Origin: Escherichia phage vB_Eco4M-7
Direction: 5' to 3' (one strand)
DNA: 64,000 nucleotides
Sequence record: MN176217
A program made the translations under genes and the position numbers. Position 1 is the stretch's first letter. Each line of letters starts with the position of its first letter. Of the stretch, positions 1 through 10,213 are shown one piece after another. Below the pieces are notes generated by a model, which worked only from the letters and a program-made list of their open reading frames with translations, did no database searches and was not told the DNA's origin.

Positions 1-10
1 AGACTGCGAG

Positions 11-232
11 ATGATCGCCGCGATAGTAAGTCTTAACCATGACGGCTATGAAGGCCACTATGCGAGAGCAACCAACCTTCGGCTCAAGGTGCGCATCCAT
101 TTCAAGGTCGCAGGCGAGGACCGCACCGGACTCTCTAAGGAAGAGTTCAGCAGCATTGCCGAAGCAAAGGCATGGCTCAAGGCATTCTATAAGAACAACC
201 CTAAATTCTATCCAACTAAGGACGCATCATGA
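11..232 (+). CDS. hypothetical protein (may be 5'-truncated by window edge)
   Basis: ORF with protein-like composition; ATGA overlap with next ORF suggests translational coupling. Confidence 0.3.
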   Translation: MIAAIVSLNHDGYEGHYARATNLRLKVRIHFKVAGEDRTGLSKEEFSSIAEAKAWLKAFYKNNPKFYPTKDAS

Positions 233-417
233 CTAATAAAACACAGCTCATCAATTTTGAAGGCAAAGAATACGAAATAGACGCTCGTGCGCGATTCGTT
301 GCGCGCGATTCTAACGGAACCATCTGGGCGTATGAGGGTAAACCTGCATGGAACGATTGGCGCGGCCAGTGGGGGATATGCAATTGGCGATTCACTTTGG
401 TGCAAGCAAATTGGTGA
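229..417 (+). CDS. hypothetical small protein
   Basis: ORF 62 aa; start overlaps stop of upstream ORF. Confidence 0.3.
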   Translation: MTNKTQLINFEGKEYEIDARARFVARDSNGTIWAYEGKPAWNDWRGQWGICNWRFTLVQANW

Positions 418-424
418 TGGAAAG

Positions 425-721
425 ATGTTCGAAGAGAACAGACCAGCATCACGTGATTCATTAAAGGAAGTGGCAGAAATCAAAATCCAAGACCAAGCGC
501 CATCGACCGATAACCAATATGCAGTCGGGCAACGTGACATCGAGCAACTCGACGAGGGCGGCTATTATACGCGCCACATCTATGCCATGACGCATGAAGG
601 ACTTTACAGCAAGTCAGACATCGCCGCTGAACTGGCCCATCGTGACTTGCAAATTGACCTTCTCAAGATAGAAGTGCAAAACTTACGCAACACCCTTTTG
701 AATACTTGGAGCTTAAAATGA
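425..721 (+). CDS. hypothetical protein
   Basis: Internal ATG at 425 (MFEENRPAS...) of track ORF 287..721, just after stop of 229..417. Confidence 0.3.
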   Translation: MFEENRPASRDSLKEVAEIKIQDQAPSTDNQYAVGQRDIEQLDEGGYYTRHIYAMTHEGLYSKSDIAAELAHRDLQIDLLKIEVQNLRNTLLNTWSLK

Positions 722-1137
722 CGCAACGTTATGATGTTGATTATTGCACGCAGCACGCTTGCACCTGCGAAGTTGTAAAGGATGATGAAGGCGGCTACGT
801 TGAATATGAGGACTACGCCGCGCTGGAAGCGAAATACAGTGAAGCGCAACGCGAGTTGGTTGCATTACGCTCACAGGTCCGTGATGCGTCGGTGCTCGTT
901 AAGCAGTTGCATGACGTTGTTGCTACTATAGGCGTGGATGATGCGCCGAAGGAGGAAGCGTGGACCGTTTGGGAATCCAACGCAACCAATCCCGTCCCAG
1001 GACGTATGGTGATGTATATGTTGCGCGACGGCTATGAATCTAAATCACCTGTGCTTTCCGATGGGTTGCGTTGGGAGATGATGGGACTGCCACACGGAAC
1101 GGACATCGTCGCTTATCGGGTTGTTAAGGAGGGGTGA
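718..1137 (+). CDS. hypothetical protein
   Basis: ATG at 718 overlaps upstream stop (ATGA); ORF MTQRYDVDY... Confidence 0.4.
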   Translation: MTQRYDVDYCTQHACTCEVVKDDEGGYVEYEDYAALEAKYSEAQRELVALRSQVRDASVLVKQLHDVVATIGVDDAPKEEAWTVWESNATNPVPGRMVMYMLRDGYESKSPVLSDGLRWEMMGLPHGTDIVAYRVVKEG

Positions 1138-1670
1138 TGGGTAACGATGCAGGATGGGGCAAGCCGCGATACTCAAAACTTGCCCACTACTTTGACGACG
1201 GCGAGCAAATCAGCTTGTGCGGTAAATTCAGCAAAGGCAATACAGAGTTGACCGACGCTCAAGAAATGGAATCAAGTTTAACAATTGGTGATTGTTCTAA
1301 ATGTCGCAAGGCATTATATGAGTTATTAACTCTAAGGGGATTGGAAGCGGCAAAATCAAGGGATGAATGGGTCATTAACGTCTGTGAAGGGAATCCAGAA
1401 TTAATGGATGAATGGCTAAAGACGGATGCTGTTAATGCCATTTTCAAAAGGCATTATAAAACTTGTATGCGTTACAAGATGAATGATGATATTATTTTTA
1501 TGGTATTATCTTATTCAAGGAGCACAATGGACGTCAAAAAGCTTCGACAATATCGCCACAAGGTAATGTGTGAATTACGCCGTTTAGGAGTGATTGTGGA
1601 TAATAATGTTATTAAAACGGAGTTAAAGAAGCGTGATAAAAGGAATGGTGACTGGAAGGTCAGCGGATAA
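1137..1670 (+). CDS. hypothetical protein
   Basis: ATG 1137 preceded by AAGGAGG at 1126-1132; 177 aa. Confidence 0.4.
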   Translation: MGNDAGWGKPRYSKLAHYFDDGEQISLCGKFSKGNTELTDAQEMESSLTIGDCSKCRKALYELLTLRGLEAAKSRDEWVINVCEGNPELMDEWLKTDAVNAIFKRHYKTCMRYKMNDDIIFMVLSYSRSTMDVKKLRQYRHKVMCELRRLGVIVDNNVIKTELKKRDKRNGDWKVSG

Positions 1671-2023
1671 AGAACATTGATTCGTGTGTTTTGAAGAATG
1701 GAATGTGTACAATTGGTCGCTTTACGCGGCCTTTTTGTCGTTTGGGTCGTGTTTTGTGATAGAATAATTATGACGAGGTGTTTTATTTATTAATTGTGCG
1801 GAAATATTTAGAAATATATACAAACAGGATTGTTAATATTTTAATAGTGTATGGCTATTGGTCCGTGGTGTTTGTTAGATTCTATCTATGGATTGGATTT
1901 TCTTGGGTCGTGGAACGTGGTTTTGAACACATTTGATACGCCTAAAATACGGTTAAAAATTAAGCGTATCATGGCTGCAGGCCGCGCCGTTCCTGGATTC
2001 CTATTTTCAAAAGTGGTACACCC

Positions 2024-2294
2024 TTACGTCATGATACGTCATGGTTTTCTATCCGTAAGAGTGTACAGCCCTTGCCGCGCCTGGCTTGTACATTAATCTT
2101 ACGGATGATACGGATAAAACTGAGCATCGTTATATATAGAATTCGAAAAATTAATTAACTCCATTTTAAAAACATTTATATTAATTTTTTTCATATCCTC
2201 ATACTTATGTTAATTTATATATTTAACGTATCATCCGTAAGATATAAGTAAAAACAAAGACTTGCGGCAATACGGATGATACGTCATGATACGC
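2024..2294. repeat. Palindromic GGATGATACG repeat cassette, copy 1: inverted arms CTTACGGATGATACGG (2098-2113) and CGTATCATCCGTAAG (2227-2241) flank a 113-bp AT-rich core; extra half-sites at 2024-2044 and 2271-2294
   Basis: Read directly; same architecture and a conserved core (TATATAGAATTCGAAAAATTAATTA) recur at 18117-18396. Confidence 0.7.
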
Positions 2295-2458
2295 TTCAAC
2301 CAGCCAGCAGCGGCTAAGTCATTGATTTGCATAACAAGCGGCGAAAGGGATGGATTTCTTTTATACGTATCAAACAGTACACCACGCACCACGGTCCGCA
2401 ATCCTATTTGCACTATGATTTGTGTACGTTTATAGCCATAATGAACATCAATCTGCAC

Positions 2459-2488
2459 TTGAATATAATGTCCATCCATTGTATAATT
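2459..2488 (+). promoter_or_regulatory. sigma70-like promoter candidate (-35 TTGAAT, 18-bp spacer, -10 TATAAT)
   Basis: Hexamers read from sequence upstream of ORF 2508. Confidence 0.35.
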
Positions 2489-2507
2489 CACACTATTAAT
2501 TTGCACT

Positions 2508-2996
2508 ATGGGATTTTGCACTATGAGTCAAGATTATGTAGCGATGCCTGAAGACTTTGAAGACCCGCGATTCGCAGAGCACAATCAGGCTTTATTCGAT
2601 GAGTTCATTGACCTTGTTATTCAGGGCCATGACATGCGCGCAGCTTTTGCACTAGTATTTGGAATGGAAGTTGCAACGGATAACTACACTGGCCAGCGAA
2701 TCCTTTGCACGCAACGCAATCCATACTACAAGATGCGCTTCAAAAAGCGTATGGAAGAGATGCCACTCAAGGATTTGTGGAGCGTAAAAGGTGCAATTCA
2801 CAATTTGGTCAAGCTTGTGCGTGATCCAGAAGTCGCAGCGTCAGCCAAGCTTAATGCTATTCGTGAACTGAATATCATCTACGACATCACGATGATTGAT
2901 GAAAACGGCAACAGCAAGATGGGCCGTTCCATGGACGATTTCTACAAGGATTTTGGAGAGGCGGCCAAAGAAGGCGAGCAATTCTCCCGCCACTAG
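2508..2996 (+). CDS. hypothetical early protein
   Basis: ORF 162 aa with acidic N-terminus; alternative start at 2523. Confidence 0.45.
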   Translation: MGFCTMSQDYVAMPEDFEDPRFAEHNQALFDEFIDLVIQGHDMRAAFALVFGMEVATDNYTGQRILCTQRNPYYKMRFKKRMEEMPLKDLWSVKGAIHNLVKLVRDPEVAASAKLNAIRELNIIYDITMIDENGNSKMGRSMDDFYKDFGEAAKEGEQFSRH

Positions 2997-3395
2997 CCAA
3001 TTTGCACTATAAAACGGCCCTAGAACACATTGTCTCCAATTCTAGGGCCATCGGTAATACGACGGGGAAGGTTGCAACCGTAAACGCGTTAGAAAGTGTA
3101 TTATTATAAGTCATCTTTTAGTCACCTTACGTAACAATTTACGACCTTCAACCGTCCAATCGAACGACTCCACCAGCAGATTCGCACTATAACCTAAGAC
3201 CACTCGACCCTTCTCGTTATCGACCCGCCAGCAAGTCTCGAATAGCATTCGATTTGCACTATTAACTATTGCTGCGACTCGCGTAGGATAAGCGCAATTT
3301 GCACTATGGTCGTAAAGGGATAAGGTGCGACCACTTCCGATGGACAACGTAGCGATGAGAATGAGCGTATTCATAAGCCACCAATTTGCACTATG

Positions 3396-3419
3396 AAAAG
3401 CGACCCCGAAGGGCCGCCA
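3396..3419 (-). terminator. Rho-independent terminator candidate (7-bp stem, UUCG tetraloop, U tract) on minus strand
   Basis: Minus-strand RNA GCGGCCC-UUCG-GGGUCGC-UUUU immediately downstream of stop of 3425..4051. Confidence 0.45.
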
Positions 3420-3424
3420 TTCGA

Positions 3425-4051
3425 TTAGATAATCTGGAAGGTGTAGGACTTGTTGCCGAACTCGAAGTTCAAGCGTCCAGCTTCTTTAAGCTTCATGCGG
3501 AAGCGAATATGCTTGCTATCCGGCAAGCCCAGCGCGGCGAACGCTACGCGGACCGATTTGAACTCGCCTACACCCTCGACCATAACGCCGTTACGGGTGA
3601 GACGCTTTTGCGCCACTTCTTTATTATCCCAACTTTTTGCAATACCTTTGCTATTCGAACGGCGATGGGAAGGAATTGCAATTTTATTCGCTCCAACCGG
3701 AGCATCATTAAGGCCGCTTTTAACGAAGGCTTCATATTCTTCGTCGGTCATCGCGTCGAGTTCTTCCTGGGTCGGCTCGGCCTTTTTAACGACCGCGCGC
3801 GCCTTATGCGTTTTTACATCACTGGACACTTCCTCGCGAGACTTTGCGTCTGGGATGGGCGATTCGTTGGACGGATCATCGAGCGCGTTTAAGGATTCGA
3901 TTAACGCGATTACGCGAGTCTCAGCGGTGCGACGGTCCGCGAATTTTTTAATCGGCTTTGAGCCTGAATTTTCGTTATAGAATGCAACGAGGTCGGCGGT
4001 CTTGGTTGCGATTACGTCGCCGCTGGTGGAGAAACGATTCAAACTGGCCAT
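3425..4051 (-). CDS. hypothetical protein
   Basis: 208-aa minus-strand ORF with natural composition and a terminator after its stop; overlapping + strand ORFs are R/F-rich and look spurious. Confidence 0.4.
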   Translation of the reverse strand: MASLNRFSTSGDVIATKTADLVAFYNENSGSKPIKKFADRRTAETRVIALIESLNALDDPSNESPIPDAKSREEVSSDVKTHKARAVVKKAEPTQEELDAMTDEEYEAFVKSGLNDAPVGANKIAIPSHRRSNSKGIAKSWDNKEVAQKRLTRNGVMVEGVGEFKSVRVAFAALGLPDSKHIRFRMKLKEAGRLNFEFGNKSYTFQII

Positions 4052-4192
4052 AATAAACTCCTAGTTTGGGAGCGGTGTCAACGACCTATTCGTTAACTCA
4101 TCCGTCCCGATATGAGTACATTATAATATAGTGTAGAAAAAAAGTAAAGCACTTTTTCGATAAAAATGAGATAAATTATTTTATCTTTTTTC

Positions 4193-4220
4193 TTTACTTC
4201 TTCGTACACTCGCGTATACT
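4193..4220 (+). promoter_or_regulatory. Promoter-like element copy A (-35 TTTACT, 16-bp spacer, -10 TATACT) within conserved block CTTTACTTCTTCGTACACT
   Basis: Near-identical block repeated at 4589-4619. Confidence 0.4.
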
Positions 4221-4276
4221 TGTTTATATCGAGACGGGCGATGGCCCTTCCTTCTAATAGCATCGGGAGTTTTATT

Positions 4277-4579
4277 ATGACCACTTTAATCTCTTCTATC
4301 CTTACTTACGACGAAGACCGTTTAACCGTTCGCTCTCTTATCGCCGCCGTTAACGCGGAACTAGAATCCACCATTATTAAGGTCCGCGCGGTCGCTTTCG
4401 TCGGCCTTTCCTTCGACGATATTAAGTACGCCGAACGTAGCGTCATCCGCTTCGCGAAGACCGATGACGAAGCCGTTACCCTTATCGAGACGGTTACGCC
4501 GCGCGGCGAAGCGTTAATTATCGTCGAGTATATCGACGTAGAAGGCGATAAGGCTTATAAATATTTTATCGCAAAATAA
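4277..4579 (+). CDS. hypothetical small acidic protein
   Basis: ATG 4277 (MTTLISS...), 100 aa. Confidence 0.4.
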   Translation: MTTLISSILTYDEDRLTVRSLIAAVNAELESTIIKVRAVAFVGLSFDDIKYAERSVIRFAKTDDEAVTLIETVTPRGEALIIVEYIDVEGDKAYKYFIAK

Positions 4580-4590
4580 CGAAAAAGTGC

Positions 4591-4619
4591 TTTACTTCTT
4601 CGTACACTAAGACTATAAT
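4591..4619 (+). promoter_or_regulatory. Promoter-like element copy B (-35 TTTACT, 17-bp spacer, -10 TATAAT), followed by 8-bp stem hairpin GGTAGCGA-ATAGG-TCGCTACC in the leader (4641-4661)
   Basis: Read directly. Confidence 0.4.
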
Positions 4620-4686
4620 GTTTTATATCGAGAGGGGATGAGGTAGCGAATAGGTCGCTACCCTCCCGACTAACTAGGAGAATATT

Positions 4687-4977
4687 ATGATTACTTTAGC
4701 CGCTATCCGCGACGCTCGCGTCGAGACTTCCGAAAATTCCAACGTATTTGGCGAAAAGCTTAAAAACGTCTATCTTTTTAACGTAGACGCAACTATCGAG
4801 CCTATTTATGAGCCGATCAACTTCCTCGACCTTTACAAGTATCGCGACGAGGACATCGTATCATCCCGCGTAACGATCAACGGCTTCGTCTATACGATTA
4901 CCGAAATCGGCGGCGAATATCTCGCGGTCCCGCAACTCGGCGGCGAAGTAACTTTCTTTAAAATCGTAAGCCTGTAA
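4687..4977 (+). CDS. hypothetical small protein
   Basis: ORF 96 aa with AGGAG RBS at 4676-4680. Confidence 0.4.
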   Translation: MITLAAIRDARVETSENSNVFGEKLKNVYLFNVDATIEPIYEPINFLDLYKYRDEDIVSSRVTINGFVYTITEIGGEYLAVPQLGGEVTFFKIVSL

Positions 4978-4988
4978 GGAGAAGGAAG

Positions 4989-5198
4989 ATGACTAATATG
5001 AATAATTCTCTTAACGCGCGCGCCCATCGCACCGCCGTAATCGATATGTTCCGCGAGCTTAAGGAATTATGCGATAATATGAACGCGATGTTATCCATCG
5101 GCGGCTGGGGATACGAAGAAGAGGTTAAATACGCGGTTATGCGTCGCCGTCGCGATAACGTCCTTGGACAAATTAAACGCGCCGGATTATTCCTTTAA
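4989..5198 (+). CDS. hypothetical small protein
   Basis: ORF 69 aa; RBS GGAGAAGGAAG upstream. Confidence 0.4.
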   Translation: MTNMNNSLNARAHRTAVIDMFRELKELCDNMNAMLSIGGWGYEEEVKYAVMRRRRDNVLGQIKRAGLFL

Positions 5199-5224
5199 TT
5201 ATAATTACCCACCGTTACTAATAG

Positions 5225-5250
5225 GCCGCGCTTAGTCGCGGCTTTTCTTC
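5225..5250 (+). terminator. Rho-independent terminator (GCCGCG-CTTAGT-CGCGGC then TTTTCTTC)
   Basis: Perfect 6-bp GC stem plus T tract right after the + strand early gene block. Confidence 0.55.
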
Positions 5251-5370
5251 GTCCCTATCTCGATGCGCTTCTCCGCGAAAACTCCTTTATCCTTCCCTTC
5301 GTCGTCGCATAATCTTCGTCGAGATGCGCCTTAGTTCGCATAACAGGTATTACGTTAAATGGAGAACATC

Positions 5371-5442
5371 GCGTAAGTCGTTGTTTTATATAGACACATA
5401 TATCGGACCGTTAGGGCGGGTCGCGTAAGTCGTTGTTTTATA
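5371..5442. repeat. Direct repeat CGCGTAAGTCGTTGTTTTATA x2 (5371-5391 and 5422-5442)
   Basis: Read directly in 650-bp non-coding region. Confidence 0.6.
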
Positions 5443-5568
5443 AAGGCGCAAAACTTTCCCTTCGTTCCGAACTAAAACGAGAAATATGCCGACCCTTCGC
5501 CCGAAAATAGTACGCATGCGAAATTACATGCATCTCGAATAATCCCCACCGATACTATCCTACACGCA

Positions 5569-5622
5569 ATCATTCGCTTTCGAATCATTATGCTTCATAT
5601 TATCATGCGTCGAATCATTCGC
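5569..5622. repeat. Direct repeat AATCATTCGCTTTCGAAT x2 (5569-5586 and 5605-5622)
   Basis: Read directly. Confidence 0.6.
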
Positions 5623-5903
5623 TTTCGAATTGTAACGCTGGAAACTGTAACGGCGATTGATTATTGCGTTCGTGTGGTTTTTATGGCATGGGTCTTTTGG
5701 TGCGTTTTGCTACTTGATGGAATTTGCGGTACACTAATCAAAATACGACACATTTGGTCCACTAACTTTTCAAAGAAAAAGTCCTAGACAGTACCGTACT
5801 ATTTTGTACCCACAGGAAATTTGCAGTACACTCCTGCGCAGCAGGCAAAATAAAGGGCCGCACTAAGCGACCCACGATTCACGGTTAAAGCAACATCCAC
5901 CCA

Positions 5904-6368
5904 CTATTCAATCTTATGGGCATCACCAAAACCATCAGCAATCTGGCTGATCAACGACTCAATGGACACAGTTTTACCAATTGATCGAGCGGTAATAGCA
6001 AGCATATTATCAATCAAGCCACGATTGACTTCACATGTTCCAGGCTTTAACTCATCTTCAGAACAACCAAAAAGCTGGTCGCGCAGACTTTCAAGAGAAC
6101 GCTCAATATTTTCCAACTTCTCTTCTAAATCGGATTGGCGACGTAAAACCCATGTCAAGTCACGGTTGCCGACTTCCAATCCATCAGAATAGCAAGGTGG
6201 AGCGTCAATTTTGATGCTGGAACTAAAAGCAGTGCCGCTGCCTTTAGTATAAGTATGGCTCATAGAATCATTTTGGCTCATAGAATCATTTTTATTTGAC
6301 ATATCATTACCTTTAATATTTGGGTGATTAACAATAACTATAATAAAGCCGCATAGCGCGCCATTCAA
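5904..6368 (-). CDS. hypothetical protein with internal tandem 18-bp duplication
   Basis: ORF 154 aa; tandem GGCTCATAGAATCATTTT x2 at 6257-6292. Confidence 0.35.
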   Translation of the reverse strand: MNGALCGFIIVIVNHPNIKGNDMSNKNDSMSQNDSMSHTYTKGSGTAFSSSIKIDAPPCYSDGLEVGNRDLTWVLRRQSDLEEKLENIERSLESLRDQLFGCSEDELKPGTCEVNRGLIDNMLAITARSIGKTVSIESLISQIADGFGDAHKIE

Positions 6369-6399
6369 ATCGATTTATTAATTGTGACGATTGGATTCA

Positions 6400-6627
6400 T
6401 CAATCGATACAAATTGTGCAGGGTCGCCGGATACAGTTGCGCCGATGATACCCATCTGAGAGAAAAAATTCTGAATAAACTTCCTTCCAGTACTTACGCG
6501 CTGCTTTCTGGGCTTGACCTTTGCGCTTGAAGCTTTTACCTTGAAATATGAAGCGGTCTTTTGGTGCGTAATACTCCACCACACCTTCCAGCCATTGTAA
6601 GAACGCTACTGATTCATTTTTATTCAT
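6400..6627 (-). CDS. hypothetical small basic protein
   Basis: ORF 75 aa. Confidence 0.3.
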   Translation of the reverse strand: MNKNESVAFLQWLEGVVEYYAPKDRFIFQGKSFKRKGQAQKAARKYWKEVYSEFFLSDGYHRRNCIRRPCTICID

Positions 6628-7493: not shown

Positions 7494-9833
7494 TTATTTT
7501 GCTGCTTTCAGCGCGGCTATCTCTGCCTCGAGAACCTCGATGCGGTCCATCAATGCAAGAATAGCCTCGTGGTGCAGTGCTGCTGCTACGCCTGGTGTGT
7601 TGACAGATTTTATGTTATCCAACGTCGAACCGTCGCGCAGAGTAACAGGCGATGACTGTGTTTCAGATACTGCTTCAGGAAAGTCTTTCTCTACATCCTG
7701 GGCGATGAAGCCAAAACCGACGGAGCCATTAGTTTCCAGAGTCCATGCCACGCCTCTAATATTGCGCATCTTGACGAGTGGATCAGTGATCCGCTCAATG
7801 TTACTTTTAATACGTTCATCAGATATACTCCGCCACTCCTGACACCTTGCTATTCCATCGGAGCCAAAAAGATAAGAGGCCGCGCCGCCTGTCCCGCTGT
7901 AAACGTTCAATTGAGCGCGGTCCAGCGCGGTCGTGCTACTCCTTATGCCTCCGAGAATCCAGCTTCCGCTGTACCAGTCACCGCTGATTGAGTTTACAAA
8001 ATTTCCTTCTGGAACGTTGGCATAGTTTTGAATCCTTATGGCGTTGTTTTCTGCAGCAGCAACGCCTACTGAATTAACTGGGGATGCAACAAGGTCTTTA
8101 GACCGGATATATGCATCAACAAATATTGTTCCATCAGGGCGCAGAGTTCCAATCTGGGATGTGGAATTTGGCAACACCAATTTGCCATCTTGGTTAAATG
8201 CCCACTCTTGCACCCCATTAGATATCACCGCACCTTGTTCAGATGTTAATCCATCAATCTTGCCGTATGCCTGCAAGAATGCTTGATACGCGATGTTCGT
8301 GCCAATCTTATATTCAGATTTTACACTACCGCCTCTGACAAGCGTTCCGGTTGCAGGTTTTACTGCGTCACCATTAATGACGCTCCAAGTCGTATTCGCG
8401 GCAACAAATCCACCAGATGCACGAATCACCCAAACACCTTCAAAGGCATTAGGTCGAATTTCATTCGCATCATCACGTCCATAAGCGCCATTTGACAGCG
8501 ATGCATCAAAGTTCACGTCTACATAATAACCATCAGAAGTCCCGCGCATACTTCCAGCAGTTTTTACTATTTTTGGCTCAAATGCGCCATATCCTCGCGT
8601 CACGCCAGAGGTGCCGAATGCAGTAAGCATAGACACATTAGGTGAACCAGAAATATTTGGTGCAGCACTCTGCCTGACACGACCGTCGTTTGAAGATACA
8701 CCTCCATCACCACGCCCGAATAAACCTGGGATTGAGCCTGCTTGAACGCCGTTGCGGTCTGGAACTCGAAATGTAGTTGTGCCGTTGCCTAATGAATACT
8801 TGCCGCGTTTCGCTGGGTCCGCTAACCAATCTGCATCAGCAATAGGCGAAAGCATTTGCGCATATGCCCAAAGTTCAGGCCAATCTGCACGATTGAGTAA
8901 TTGGCCGTCAGAAACGACTTCGTAAGGCTGGATGTAAGCACGACTGTCTCGCAAGTGGAAGTCGCCGACGCCATAGTTCATAACACCGTTCATGCTTGGG
9001 CCAACGGTGCCTGTGTTCACTAAGTTCTCAACCCAACGCTTGGTTGCAGCATCATAATCGTTTACCGGATCACCAGCAAGCGGAGTCGGCCCTTGTGGAC
9101 GAATATTCAACCAAGCTTGAGCATTGTCTGCTGATCCTGTGCCGCCCATTGAAGTTGGAACGATGCTTTGATCAGCGACTTGTCCGAATCCAAAAGCAGA
9201 CTTCATCCCCTGTATGGTAGTTTGACCTGTGCCGCCATTTGCGACTGGTATAACGCTTTGCGTGTTATAAACTTGAACCCAATCAGACCAGGATGATATA
9301 TCGACGCTATACAACCTTTGGTATACTGTGTTTATCCAGTAAGGCGTGTATCTCTGCACACAGCTGTTCGTTGAAACTCCCGTTTGTAAAACTTCAAGTA
9401 TTCCAGCTTGTTCTACAGGATAGTTGAGTGCTGTTGACGCCCCAGCATTAGTCGGTTGGTAATATTGACCGAACCAGCTTCCGTTCAGCGCGTTAAGGTT
9501 TATGCCATTAGGAATTACGCCAAAGTTTCGGACAGTACCCGTCAAAGTCGCGGCAGTAGTTCGAATGGAAAGCATATCACCAGCCGCCCAAGCACGCGCT
9601 GCAGTACCTTCCTGTGCACGCTGCACGGTCAGGACGTTTCCAACAACGGCTGTTACTGTGACGATTTCGAATTGGAGGCCTGTTGCGGCGTCAACGATTG
9701 TCGCCACTACACGCTCGTTTGCGCCCAAGGTCGGAAAGCCCGACCCTGAGCGAATTGTGATTGTGGTGTCTGAAGTCGTCGTTGGCTGAGCGAGCGCGAC
9801 CTCAAAGTTGTTTTTGAATATTAGCCTTGGCAT
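7494..9833 (-). CDS. Tail fibre / tailspike protein with C-terminal intramolecular chaperone (peptidase S74-like) domain
   Basis: 779 aa; G/T/S/N-rich beta-type body; C-terminal SDERIKSNIE motif typical of the auto-cleaving chaperone, followed by a coiled-coil tail. Confidence 0.65.
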   Translation of the reverse strand: MPRLIFKNNFEVALAQPTTTSDTTITIRSGSGFPTLGANERVVATIVDAATGLQFEIVTVTAVVGNVLTVQRAQEGTAARAWAAGDMLSIRTTAATLTGTVRNFGVIPNGINLNALNGSWFGQYYQPTNAGASTALNYPVEQAGILEVLQTGVSTNSCVQRYTPYWINTVYQRLYSVDISSWSDWVQVYNTQSVIPVANGGTGQTTIQGMKSAFGFGQVADQSIVPTSMGGTGSADNAQAWLNIRPQGPTPLAGDPVNDYDAATKRWVENLVNTGTVGPSMNGVMNYGVGDFHLRDSRAYIQPYEVVSDGQLLNRADWPELWAYAQMLSPIADADWLADPAKRGKYSLGNGTTTFRVPDRNGVQAGSIPGLFGRGDGGVSSNDGRVRQSAAPNISGSPNVSMLTAFGTSGVTRGYGAFEPKIVKTAGSMRGTSDGYYVDVNFDASLSNGAYGRDDANEIRPNAFEGVWVIRASGGFVAANTTWSVINGDAVKPATGTLVRGGSVKSEYKIGTNIAYQAFLQAYGKIDGLTSEQGAVISNGVQEWAFNQDGKLVLPNSTSQIGTLRPDGTIFVDAYIRSKDLVASPVNSVGVAAAENNAIRIQNYANVPEGNFVNSISGDWYSGSWILGGIRSSTTALDRAQLNVYSGTGGAASYLFGSDGIARCQEWRSISDERIKSNIERITDPLVKMRNIRGVAWTLETNGSVGFGFIAQDVEKDFPEAVSETQSSPVTLRDGSTLDNIKSVNTPGVAAALHHEAILALMDRIEVLEAEIAALKAAK

Positions 9834-9871
9834 TTTACGGTCCTCGTTTTGTCGACAACCGTATTATAACC

Positions 9872-10213
9872 TTAATTTCTTTTGAGAGGAATATGACGGT
9901 TGCTGTCATTATTTGGTTTAATAATGAGCATAAAAACGATTAGAAAGATGATGGCTGATATACTTAATTCAATCAGCGCGGCTTGAGATATGGATTGATC
10001 TTCATGATACTGCTTTTGCATTTCCGCTTTCTTTTGAGCGCAAACTTCAGGTGATATATAATCGCCTTTTGAGTTGCCATAATAAATCTCGCCATTCTCA
10101 GAAATAAGCCTGCCGCAAATATCCGTTTCAGCCTTTGCACTTGACATCATAATAACGGTGCCAATGATAGCAGCGATTGTCCAGATTAGCAGTTGTGATA
10201 AAGTGTTGTTCAT
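9872..10213 (-). CDS. membrane protein (N-terminal signal/TM segment and C-terminal TM helix)
   Basis: Hydrophobic N-terminal segment ending SSAKA and C-terminal hydrophobic stretch. Confidence 0.4.
   Translation of the reverse strand: MNNTLSQLLIWTIAAIIGTVIMMSSAKAETDICGRLISENGEIYYGNSKGDYISPEVCAQKKAEMQKQYHEDQSISQAALIELSISAIIFLIVFMLIIKPNNDSNRHIPLKRN

Follow-up and report, generated by a model that had tools for sequence, protein, structure and literature searches.

A non-coding junction at the predicted right end of the direct terminal repeat in Escherichia phage vB_Eco4M-7 and its putative end signal

Between two convergent genes of Escherichia phage vB_Eco4M-7 lie some 650 nt of repeat-rich DNA, and the question that this locus raises is what a stretch of that kind is for. 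It belongs to a 64,000-nt portion of sequence record MN176217, all of which was analysed and is called the window below; positions refer to it throughout. An earlier note, made from the letters alone, had offered a replication origin, a packaging site or a small-RNA locus as candidates. The answer we favor, at a rough probability of 0.7, is that the region is the non-coding junction at which the right end of a long direct terminal repeat (DTR) meets unique DNA, and that it carries a putative right-end signal made up of positions 5698-5738 and the last ~70 nt of the repeat.

The physical description from which those candidates started is sound. The region does lie at a strand-switch point, as the flanking genes are convergent and end at 5198 (+) and 5904 (-), which leaves a non-coding spacer of 5199-5903. 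The strong terminator noted after the plus-strand block is present as a hairpin and T-run, and the 21-bp pair, the 18-bp pair and the short palindromes were all found, both pairs being unique to the region. To these can be added a second terminator, on the minus strand, and a third repeat pair, a 15-mer, so that three direct-repeat pairs (21-mer, 18/19-mer and 15-mer) stand between two terminators. Both terminators consist of a GC-rich hairpin followed by a T-run, 3' of a gene on the same strand, and their stems are inverted copies of each other. The plus-strand terminator is carried as an annotation in the records of phages Mansfield and WFC, and the minus-strand one in that of WFC.

The right boundary of the terminal repeat

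Over positions 4600-6500 the window matches Escherichia phage vB_Eco4M-7n without a difference (100% identity), and a further 27 records, from Wifcevirus or coliphages close to it, match at 91-95%. Judged by these matches, the window is that of a Wifcevirus, a PB1-like myophage of E. coli; the record of phage kaset places this genus in the family Lindbergviridae. Terminal repeats have already been annotated in several of these sister phages. A PhageTerm-predicted DTR is given for Mansfield (repeat_region 1-3673; PMC6753283) and one of 3533 bp for Ro157lw (PMC6454146), while terminal repeats of ~3.7 kb were reported for WFC and WFH (PMC6563267). In the deposited records of WFC, Ro157lw, SP13 and WFH, copies of 3533-3899 nt stand at both ends with 0 mismatches, and this presence of the same sequence at both ends is what defines the long-DTR class (PhageTerm "DTR long", T5-like).

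The boundary sequences of these relatives recur, conserved, at the corresponding places of the window. With a slash for the genome end, the left end at 2163 reads …AATTAACTCC/ATTTTAAAAAC; the boundary AATTAATTAACTCC/ATTTTAAAAACATT (window 2149-2176) matches the mapped relatives exactly, and the left end …AACTCC/ATTTT is common to Mansfield, Ro157lw, SP13, WFH and WFC. The right boundary, GGGTCTTT/TGGTGCG (equivalently GGCATGGGTCTTT/TGGTGCG), occupies 5685-5704 with the cut at 5697/5698 and is found in four relatives, namely Mansfield, Ro157lw, SP13 and WFH. Its motif, GGGTCTTT(T)TGGTGCGTTTTG, is present in 14/14 Wifcevirus loci. The WFC deposit alone differs (Table 1), and WFH, its sister from the same study, has the consensus boundary. 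Because the relatives' boundaries match the window exactly, the window should hold one collapsed DTR copy of 3535 nt, with the right physical end lying within the region. Like other DTRs in Wifcevirus and in the Serratia phage genus Myosmarvirus, this is a ~3.5-kb repeat that contains the gene for the small terminase subunit (TerS), and the window shares its boundary sequences exactly with the Wifcevirus relatives. The junction is thus largely explained by a DTR that was already known.

Table 1. Positions of the features of the terminal repeat and its right-hand junction in the window
Feature	Position	Strand	Remarks
Direct terminal repeat, single collapsed copy, 3535 nt	2163-5697		Predicted from boundary sequences of relatives
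TerS gene	2508-2996	+	In the DTR, ~350 nt from its left end
CA/TG-depleted, CG/TA-enriched domain	3531-5697		TerS-distal ~2.2 kb of the DTR
Putative sigma-70-like early promoter, TTTACT-16-TATACT	4192-4220	+	Read from the sequence
Upstream gene	End 5198	+	From the open reading frame (ORF) layout
Intrinsic terminator of early gene block	5223-5250	+	8-bp stem with 6 GC pairs, then T-run
21-mer CGCGTAAGTCGTTGTTTTATA, copy 1	5370-5390	+	Exact
21-mer CGCGTAAGTCGTTGTTTTATA, copy 2	5422-5442	+	Exact; 52-nt spacing; nearly invariant in 14 Wifcevirus genomes
18/19-mer (G/C)AATCATTCGCTTTCGAAT, copy 1 CAATCATTCGCTTTCGAAT	5567-5585	+	45-nt spacing to copy 2
18/19-mer, copy 2 GAATCATTCGCTTTCGAAT	5612-5630	+	From repeat search
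Boundary element TGGTGCGTTTTGCTACTTGATGGAATTTGCGGTACACTAAT	5698-5738	+	Unique side of the cut; includes 15-mer copy 1
15-mer AATTTGC(G/A)GTACACT, copy 1	5721-5735	+	Inside the boundary element
Alternative DTR boundary, …CAAAGAAA/AAGTCC	5778/5779		WFC deposit only, 81 nt rightward
15-mer, copy 2 AATTTGCAGTACACT	5818-5832	+	From repeat search
Intrinsic terminator of minus-strand gene block	Stem 5873-5855, T-run to 5845	-	Hairpin and T-run
First gene of minus-strand block, 132 aa	5904-6302, end at 5904	-	No family match

What sits on the unique side of the cut can be compared with a distant genus. The Serratia phages MyoSmar and MTx (Myosmarvirus) have 17.4% nucleotide identity to ECML-117 (PMC6753285) and PhageTerm DTRs of 3559 bp and 3566 bp, respectively, with a TerS homologue near one end and the same layout. 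Joining the end of the MyoSmar record to its start gives …AAGGGC/TGGTGCGATTTCACACAAAATGGATTGGCACGTACACTAA… (…AAGGGC/TGGTGCGATTTC…GTACACTAA), to be set beside …GGGTCTTT/TGGTGCGTTTTGCTACTTGATGGAATTTGCGGTACACTAA… in the window. In Wifcevirus and MyoSmar alike, whose termini were mapped independently, the heptamer TGGTGCG begins at +1 of the cut. In this anchored register, 27/40 positions outside the cut are identical between the window and MyoSmar (binomial P ~1e-6 at p = 0.3), compared with 13/40 inside the DTR, which is the chance level. Hexamers resembling -35 and -10 boxes also keep the same distance from the cut (window, TTGCTA-17-TACACT; MyoSmar, TTCACA-17-TACACT), and a second GTACACT box follows the boundary element in both genera. 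An unanchored local alignment of the two junctions scored 21-23 against a null of 20 +/- 2.3 and was not significant, so the cross-genus argument rests on the register of the mapped termini. An element is therefore conserved at a fixed distance from the cut among phages that share a terminase, and from this comparison of sequences we conclude that the 5698-5738 block is probably a functional part of the repeat boundary. The simplest reading, we infer, is that a signal in this block sets the right-hand cut directly 5' of TGGTGCG.

A plausible scheme can be built on this reading. Successive genomes of a replicating concatemer would share one copy of the repeat, which would be duplicated during packaging; with a single copy between genomes, terminase must cut at a fixed site on each side. 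The right-hand cut would fall at 5697/5698, directly 5' of TGGTGCG, and the ~40 nt of 5698-5738 would act in cis as the right-end signal along with the final ~70 nt of the repeat, which are highly conserved; the boundary element may be recognized by terminase. The 21-mer and 18-mer pairs may be accessory protein-binding or architectural sites of the junction, and the two convergent terminators would keep transcription of both gene blocks out of it. As for the suggestion of a packaging site, what stands is that a chromosome end, the right DTR boundary, falls inside the region; that packaging also starts here does not follow. We infer a site of end formation (termination) rather than necessarily one of packaging start, and initiation may lie elsewhere, for example near TerS by the TTTGCACTAT array described below.

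Several points weigh against this assignment. The boundary in vB_Eco4M-7 is transferred from its relatives through sequence identity, and since the WFC boundary lies +81 nt away and the deposited MTx boundary 14 nt left of that of MyoSmar, single-base precision is not guaranteed. A comparison of motifs at the left and right boundaries gave chance 8-9-mers only and no common motif. The boundary element resembles a sigma-70 promoter, so its conservation could reflect transcription instead of cutting. For the solved homologue, TerS of Pseudomonas phage E217, in vitro assays gave no appreciable DNA binding (PMC9611059). Lastly, the spacer is at its most variable around the 18-mer pair, whose palindrome the relatives do not keep.

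Conservation of the spacer and competing explanations

Pairwise diversity over 14 Wifcevirus genomes gives a measure of constraint on the junction. The whole spacer (5251-5848) has a diversity of 0.045, compared, in the flanking genes, with 0.12-0.16 at third codon positions and 0.05-0.07 at first and second ones. The last 67 nt of the DTR (5631-5697) form the most conserved stretch of the region in the genus, at 0.015, followed by 5443-5500 (0.027), the 21-mer pair (0.033) and the first 83 nt of unique DNA (0.034). The two most variable stretches are 5501-5566 (0.109) and the 18-mer pair (0.071). On these figures the spacer is under purifying selection.

The earlier view that the region holds no convincing ORF is borne out for both small frames, 5386-5517 (-) and 5590-5787 (+), which we judge non-coding. 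Their variable columns fall on the three codon positions as 4, 5 and 5 in the former and 12, 9 and 6 in the latter, with no excess at third positions; a frameshift in SP13, stops in F13 and kaset, and loss of the start codon in EC150 disrupt them in relatives, and neither has a Pfam or PHROG match. Codon-position variation, the disruptions and the lack of Pfam and PHROG matches together rule a hidden gene out.

Nor does the region look like a small-RNA locus. The tRNA and covariance-model scans that the earlier note had itself proposed for the region came back empty: ARAGORN predicted 0 tRNAs, Rfam gave 0 matches at gathering score across the 64 kb, and a permissive Rfam scan of 5150-5950 reached 14-16 bits at best with E ~1, which is chance level. 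Folds of sliding 120-nt segments on both strands had z-scores within +/-2 except at the minus-strand terminator (5845-5873), the sole site of values from -2.4 to -3.0, and no fold other than those of the terminators stood out from shuffled sequence. The longest inverted repeat in the region is 23 nt with 78% complementarity. A minus-strand hairpin at 5533-5512 was considered and dropped, being destroyed by a 3-nt substitution in most relatives. An unstructured transcript may still arise from the region.

The repeat pairs themselves are confined to the junction, and for this reason they were rejected as genome-wide promoter motifs. The 21-mer has no further match at <=3 mismatches in 64 kb, and two matches occurred in 0/100 shuffles; its core, GCGTAAGTCGTTG, is similar to GCGTAAGTGGTTG near the MTx DTR end, a likeness that alone is not significant. 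At <=3 mismatches the 18/19-mer is likewise confined to this region in the 64 kb, with no shuffle giving two matches. Both of its copies hold a small palindrome, ATTCG-CTTT-CGAAT, which is broken in some relatives, and the pair sits in a more variable part of the spacer. The GTACACT of the 15-mer is not enriched in the window as a whole, with 7 occurrences against 7.8 expected, although 5/7 copies fall within 2060-5826.

Direct repeats spaced 45-52 nt apart in conserved non-coding DNA at a strand switch are what suggested an origin with iteron-like repeats, an explanation that we now regard as very improbable. Iteron-type origins have at least three iterons, an AT-rich element, host-factor boxes and an adjacent initiator gene, a combination that this region lacks. 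Each repeat here has only two copies and no initiator gene adjoins them. DnaA boxes (TTWTNCACA) number 0 in 5200-5900, even at one mismatch, and no IHF site lies in the region. No AT-rich unwinding stretch is present, as AT content in any 40 nt of the region peaks at 70%, versus 90% at the left end of the repeat, and the extremes of cumulative GC skew fall at ~11 kb and 39-40 kb, away from the region. It is hardly more credible that the spacer has no function and that its repeats are what is left of tandem duplications of 45 nt and 52 nt. The pairs do extend into diverged units of 43 nt and 30 nt, as tandem duplications would, and their copies drift independently in relatives, but the spacer is 3-fold more conserved than the synonymous sites of its neighbors and is conserved in part across genera.

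Transcriptional control is the main alternative for 5698-5738, and a promoter there is compatible with a role in setting the cut. Transcription from rightward promoters would run across the end of the minus-strand block and yield an antisense or non-coding RNA, with the other repeats as operators. The candidate promoters are TTGCTA-17-TACACT (5707-5735), within the boundary element, and TTGTAC-17-TACACT (5804-5832). Hexamers with a 17-nt spacer keep identical offsets from the boundary in Wifcevirus and MyoSmar, two copies are found in both genera, the small palindrome of the 18-mers is typical of dimeric regulators, and a 69-aa protein of a transcriptional-regulator PHROG is encoded just upstream. 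Against this, a simple sigma-70 scan listed neither site (scores 7-8/12), the spacer bases ATGGA are conserved too although promoters do not need them, and the 69-aa gene is missing from about half of the genomes while the repeats are kept. No structured RNA signal is found, and there is no gene downstream on that strand. As an account of the whole region, we consider control of transcription rather unlikely.

Equally improbable, on a comparison with phage T5 that is one of analogy, is that the junction bounds a first-entering region, with the DTR as the pre-early segment and the region as an injection-stop or entry signal that would hold or release DNA transfer, a role proposed for T5 iss; this would be compatible with end formation. 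The position is that of T5 iss and its Repeat Region 3: untranslated, repeat-rich, conserved, straddling the repeat end and lying between convergent genes. In the 2 kb next to it, whose composition is unique, short genes follow sigma-70-like promoters. Wifceviruses resist 5/6 tested restriction systems with no known genome protection (PMC11990801), as T5 is reported to do (PMC8594841), and the DTR has 0 sites for EcoRI, 0 for EcoRV and 1 for EcoKI, and 6, in both orientations, for EcoP1I, the sole system to which the phages are sensitive. These counts, however, are too small for significance (0.2-0.9 expected). The DnaA boxes typical of the iss model number 0 even at one mismatch, T5 has large inverted repeats that are missing here, no A1/A2 homologues turned up, though no search was aimed at them, and two-step transfer has never been reported for these phages.

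Composition of the repeat and its left end

The DTR has a second peculiarity, which ends at or near the same boundary. Over its TerS-distal ~2.2 kb, CA and TG are depleted, most strongly at 3531-5514, and CG is enriched from ~3500 to 5697. In 3500-5697 the observed/expected ratio of CpG is 2.03 versus 1.08 in the rest of the window, that of CpA 0.49 versus 1.19, that of TpG 0.50 versus 1.17 and that of TpA 1.12 versus 0.66. Among 281 control windows of 2.2 kb, the CpG ratio had a mean of 1.085, a standard deviation of 0.076 and a maximum of 1.30. Counted per 100 nt, the ratio runs at ~2.0-2.5 up to 5699 and drops at the repeat boundary to ~1, from 5700 on. G+C content as a whole does not change, and the pattern spans genes on both strands as well as the non-coding 5250-5697. 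Within genes all three codon junctions are affected, most of all the junction across codons (TG 3.6% versus 13.2%, CG 23% versus 9.7%); NCA and NTG codons nearly vanish, and Gln, His, Cys and Trp are under-used. The most depleted trinucleotide is CAG/CTG, at 0.15-0.17 of background.

All Wifceviruses with mapped repeats (5/5) have a CA/TG-poor domain. In Myosmarvirus it is still stronger and abuts the TerS-distal boundary (~1800-3560 of MTx L029 and ~200-2000 of MyoSmar L028), with CA and TG together at 1-9 per 200 nt versus ~30 outside. Both genera thus have 2-5-fold CA/TG depletion and ~2-fold CG enrichment over the last ~2 kb of the DTR, ending at the DTR boundary or at most ~200 nt from it. 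The genes of the domain have no detectable homology between the two genera, and the homologue of the 69-aa gene in Klebsiella phage KP36 has normal composition, which together indicate that the pattern is tied to position and not to ancestry. Horizontal origin of the odd composition was rejected for the 69-aa gene on the strength of that normal KP36 homologue. Pbunavirus PB10 and Salmonella phage PCSE1, which lack the cassette, also lack the pattern. As to restriction-site avoidance as a possible cause of the CA/TG loss, the site counts in the DTR are too small to carry weight, and the CG/TA-type palindromes TCGA, CGCG and CTAG are enriched, not avoided. A narrowly worded literature search turned up no earlier account of this dinucleotide pattern from the early regions of phages, and the CA/TG-poor terminal domain appears to be new.

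A broader, tentative and on balance unlikely proposal is that Wifcevirus and Myosmarvirus, in contrast to the circularly permuted Pbunaviruses, carry a T5-like leading-end cassette, of which the region is the end, combining the right-end signal with a function in entry. The TerS-distal ~2 kb would then be a set of small genes, unrelated from genus to genus, with sigma-70-like promoters in the window, and position-specific selection would remove CA and TG from coding and non-coding DNA alike, down to the under-use of Gln, His, Cys and Trp. Such selection could, for instance, arise if this DNA met a host or phage nuclease or defense system, either first or as a free end, before protection is in place.

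Around the junction itself, a few observations concern the neighboring genes. The 69-aa gene (4989-5198) just upstream of the spacer belongs to PHROG 10377, labelled transcriptional regulator. Beyond the Wifcevirus group, its closest homologues come from siphophages of Klebsiella, genus Webervirus (40-46% identity), and the copy in the window is recoded to the local CA/TG-poor composition. Because about half of the Wifcevirus genomes are without the gene and yet have the spacer intact, its product is not the spacer's essential partner. Between the stop of the minus-strand gene and its terminator, the heptamer ACCCACG/ATTCACG (5869-5882, +) forms a tandem repeat of variable number, with ACCCACG present in 1-2 copies here, several more in Mansfield and one more in SP13, F13 and Bas99. 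Further left, the 19-mer CTTTACTTCTTCGTACACT of the putative promoter at 4192-4220 (followed by N4-TATACT) has a second copy at 4590-4608, followed by N4-TATAAT (to 4619). These near-identical sigma-70-like sequences each precede a conserved leader, TTTATATCGAGA(C/G)GGG, and two small plus-strand genes of the repeat, and their shared -35, TTTACT, likewise avoids TG.

Both TerS and a separate eight-copy array lie near the left end of the repeat. The TerS assignment comes from a phmmer match to E217 TerS (PDB 7UXE, E = 1.8e-34; structure described in PMC9611059) and from the label in the Mansfield record. The motif TTTGCACTAT occurs in eight copies in 2405-3400, all on the plus strand, around and inside the TerS gene and 240-1230 nt from the left genome end. 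Of these, 7/8 match ATTTGCACTATG at <=1 mismatch against 0.5 expected by chance, CCACYAGC stands before several of them, and the corresponding part of Serratia phage MTx has a similar CCACCAGC…CACT motif. The array is a candidate for terminase binding (pac-like) or for a phage-specific promoter motif.

The left boundary lies within a ~840-nt non-coding stretch (1670-2508) that includes a 90% AT segment at the end itself. It is flanked by TACGGATGATACG at 2100 and 2271, with a reverse complement at 2226-2239, and by TACGTCATGATACG at 2025 and 2280; AATTCGAAA, beside the left end, was discarded since it is not kept in WFH. The TerS-proximal half of the repeat (1-1400 in MTx L029, 2000-3400 in MyoSmar L028) has a strong asymmetry of CA versus TG between strands, with CA at 21-33 and TG at 4-11 per 200 nt in MTx, and a weaker asymmetry is found in the window at 2250-3250. 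This is an anomaly of the opposite kind to the symmetric depletion in the other half.

The window is not collinear with record PP596836.1, in which TerS lies at 67550-68035 of 68194 nt and window position 4600 corresponds to 1559; there is a 111-nt offset, and TerS differs by one residue. Judging from these differences, either the record is an arbitrarily opened, collapsed assembly without repeat annotation, or the window comes from a near-identical isolate.

Related systems and significance

T5 and SPO1 classes are the usual examples of long exact terminal repeats. Among known systems, the iss region of T5 appears to be the closest analogue of the junction. In T5, iss occupies 9140-10149, in a stretch that straddles the end of the 10,219-bp repeat (10.1101/866236). 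Like the junction, T5 Repeat Region 3 is untranslated, contains direct repeats and palindromes and is better conserved than neighboring genes. Most of it falls within the repeat, with an extension into unique DNA, and it is set between convergent genes behind a terminator. Both phages place conserved, repeat-rich and untranslated DNA at the inner end of the repeat, and what is missing here is paired DnaA boxes within large inverted repeats. The T5 region, at ~1.2-1.7 kb, has eight DnaA boxes and 131-bp inverted repeats, whereas the ~650 nt analysed here have no DnaA boxes and three repeat pairs. T5 is also a siphovirus with no sequence relationship to this phage, and its terminal repeat has only a mild CpG excess (1.2-1.4 versus 0.75-0.84).

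The concatemer junction of T7 is said, in the work of Dunn and Studier in 1983 and in later packaging work, to have a 160-bp repeat flanked by arrays of short repeats. In T7, a pause or termination signal is needed for concatemer processing. The likeness extends to fixed ends, a repeat duplicated at packaging, short repeats beside it and transcription signals at the junction. The repeat of vB_Eco4M-7, however, is 20 times longer and carries genes including TerS, and this phage appears to use host-type promoters, with no RNA polymerase of its own identified.

Pbunaviruses (PB1, E217, JG024) share a homologous TerS (41% identity), the neighboring 208-aa gene and structural genes, but their genomes are reported as circularly permuted and terminally redundant, with no fixed long repeats (PMC10913387, PMC12345254). 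In PB10 there is no CA/TG-depleted cassette, and TerS and the 208-aa gene directly adjoin the minus-strand block. With TerS as the query in IMG/VR, and the 208-aa protein as the query in a protein database, the matches listed were near-identical Wifcevirus sequences only.

How long terminal repeats are made was called unknown by Casjens and Gilcrease (2009), in the words quoted in PMC6454146. Accounts of Wifcevirus and Myosmarvirus DTRs (PMC6563267, PMC6753283, PMC6454146, PMC6753285) give the length of the repeat only; the junction repeats, the selective constraint, the TGGTGCG…GTACACTAA element and the compositional domain do not feature in them. The cross-genus element at the cut thus appears to be new. 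A short element that starts exactly at the right-hand cut and is kept in two otherwise dissimilar genera is a concrete candidate for an end signal. The system lends itself to such work: it has only 68 kb, grows fast and, with the BASEL isolates Bas98-101, can now be handled in E. coli K-12. Of the Wifcevirus genomes on deposit, most, including one that matches the window, are collapsed or arbitrarily opened, a point of note for assembly and engineering.

The cross-genus element and the CA/TG-poor domain raise the interest of the locus above routine annotation, and both are testable. Wifceviruses resist EcoKI, EcoCFT_I, EcoRI, EcoRV and EcoCFT_II and are very sensitive to EcoP1_I (PMC11990801). 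If the CA/TG-depleted domain reflects selection on the DNA that is exposed first, it may bear on this broad restriction resistance, and a leading-end cassette, if these phages do carry one, would also explain a resistance that in this genus is so far unexplained.

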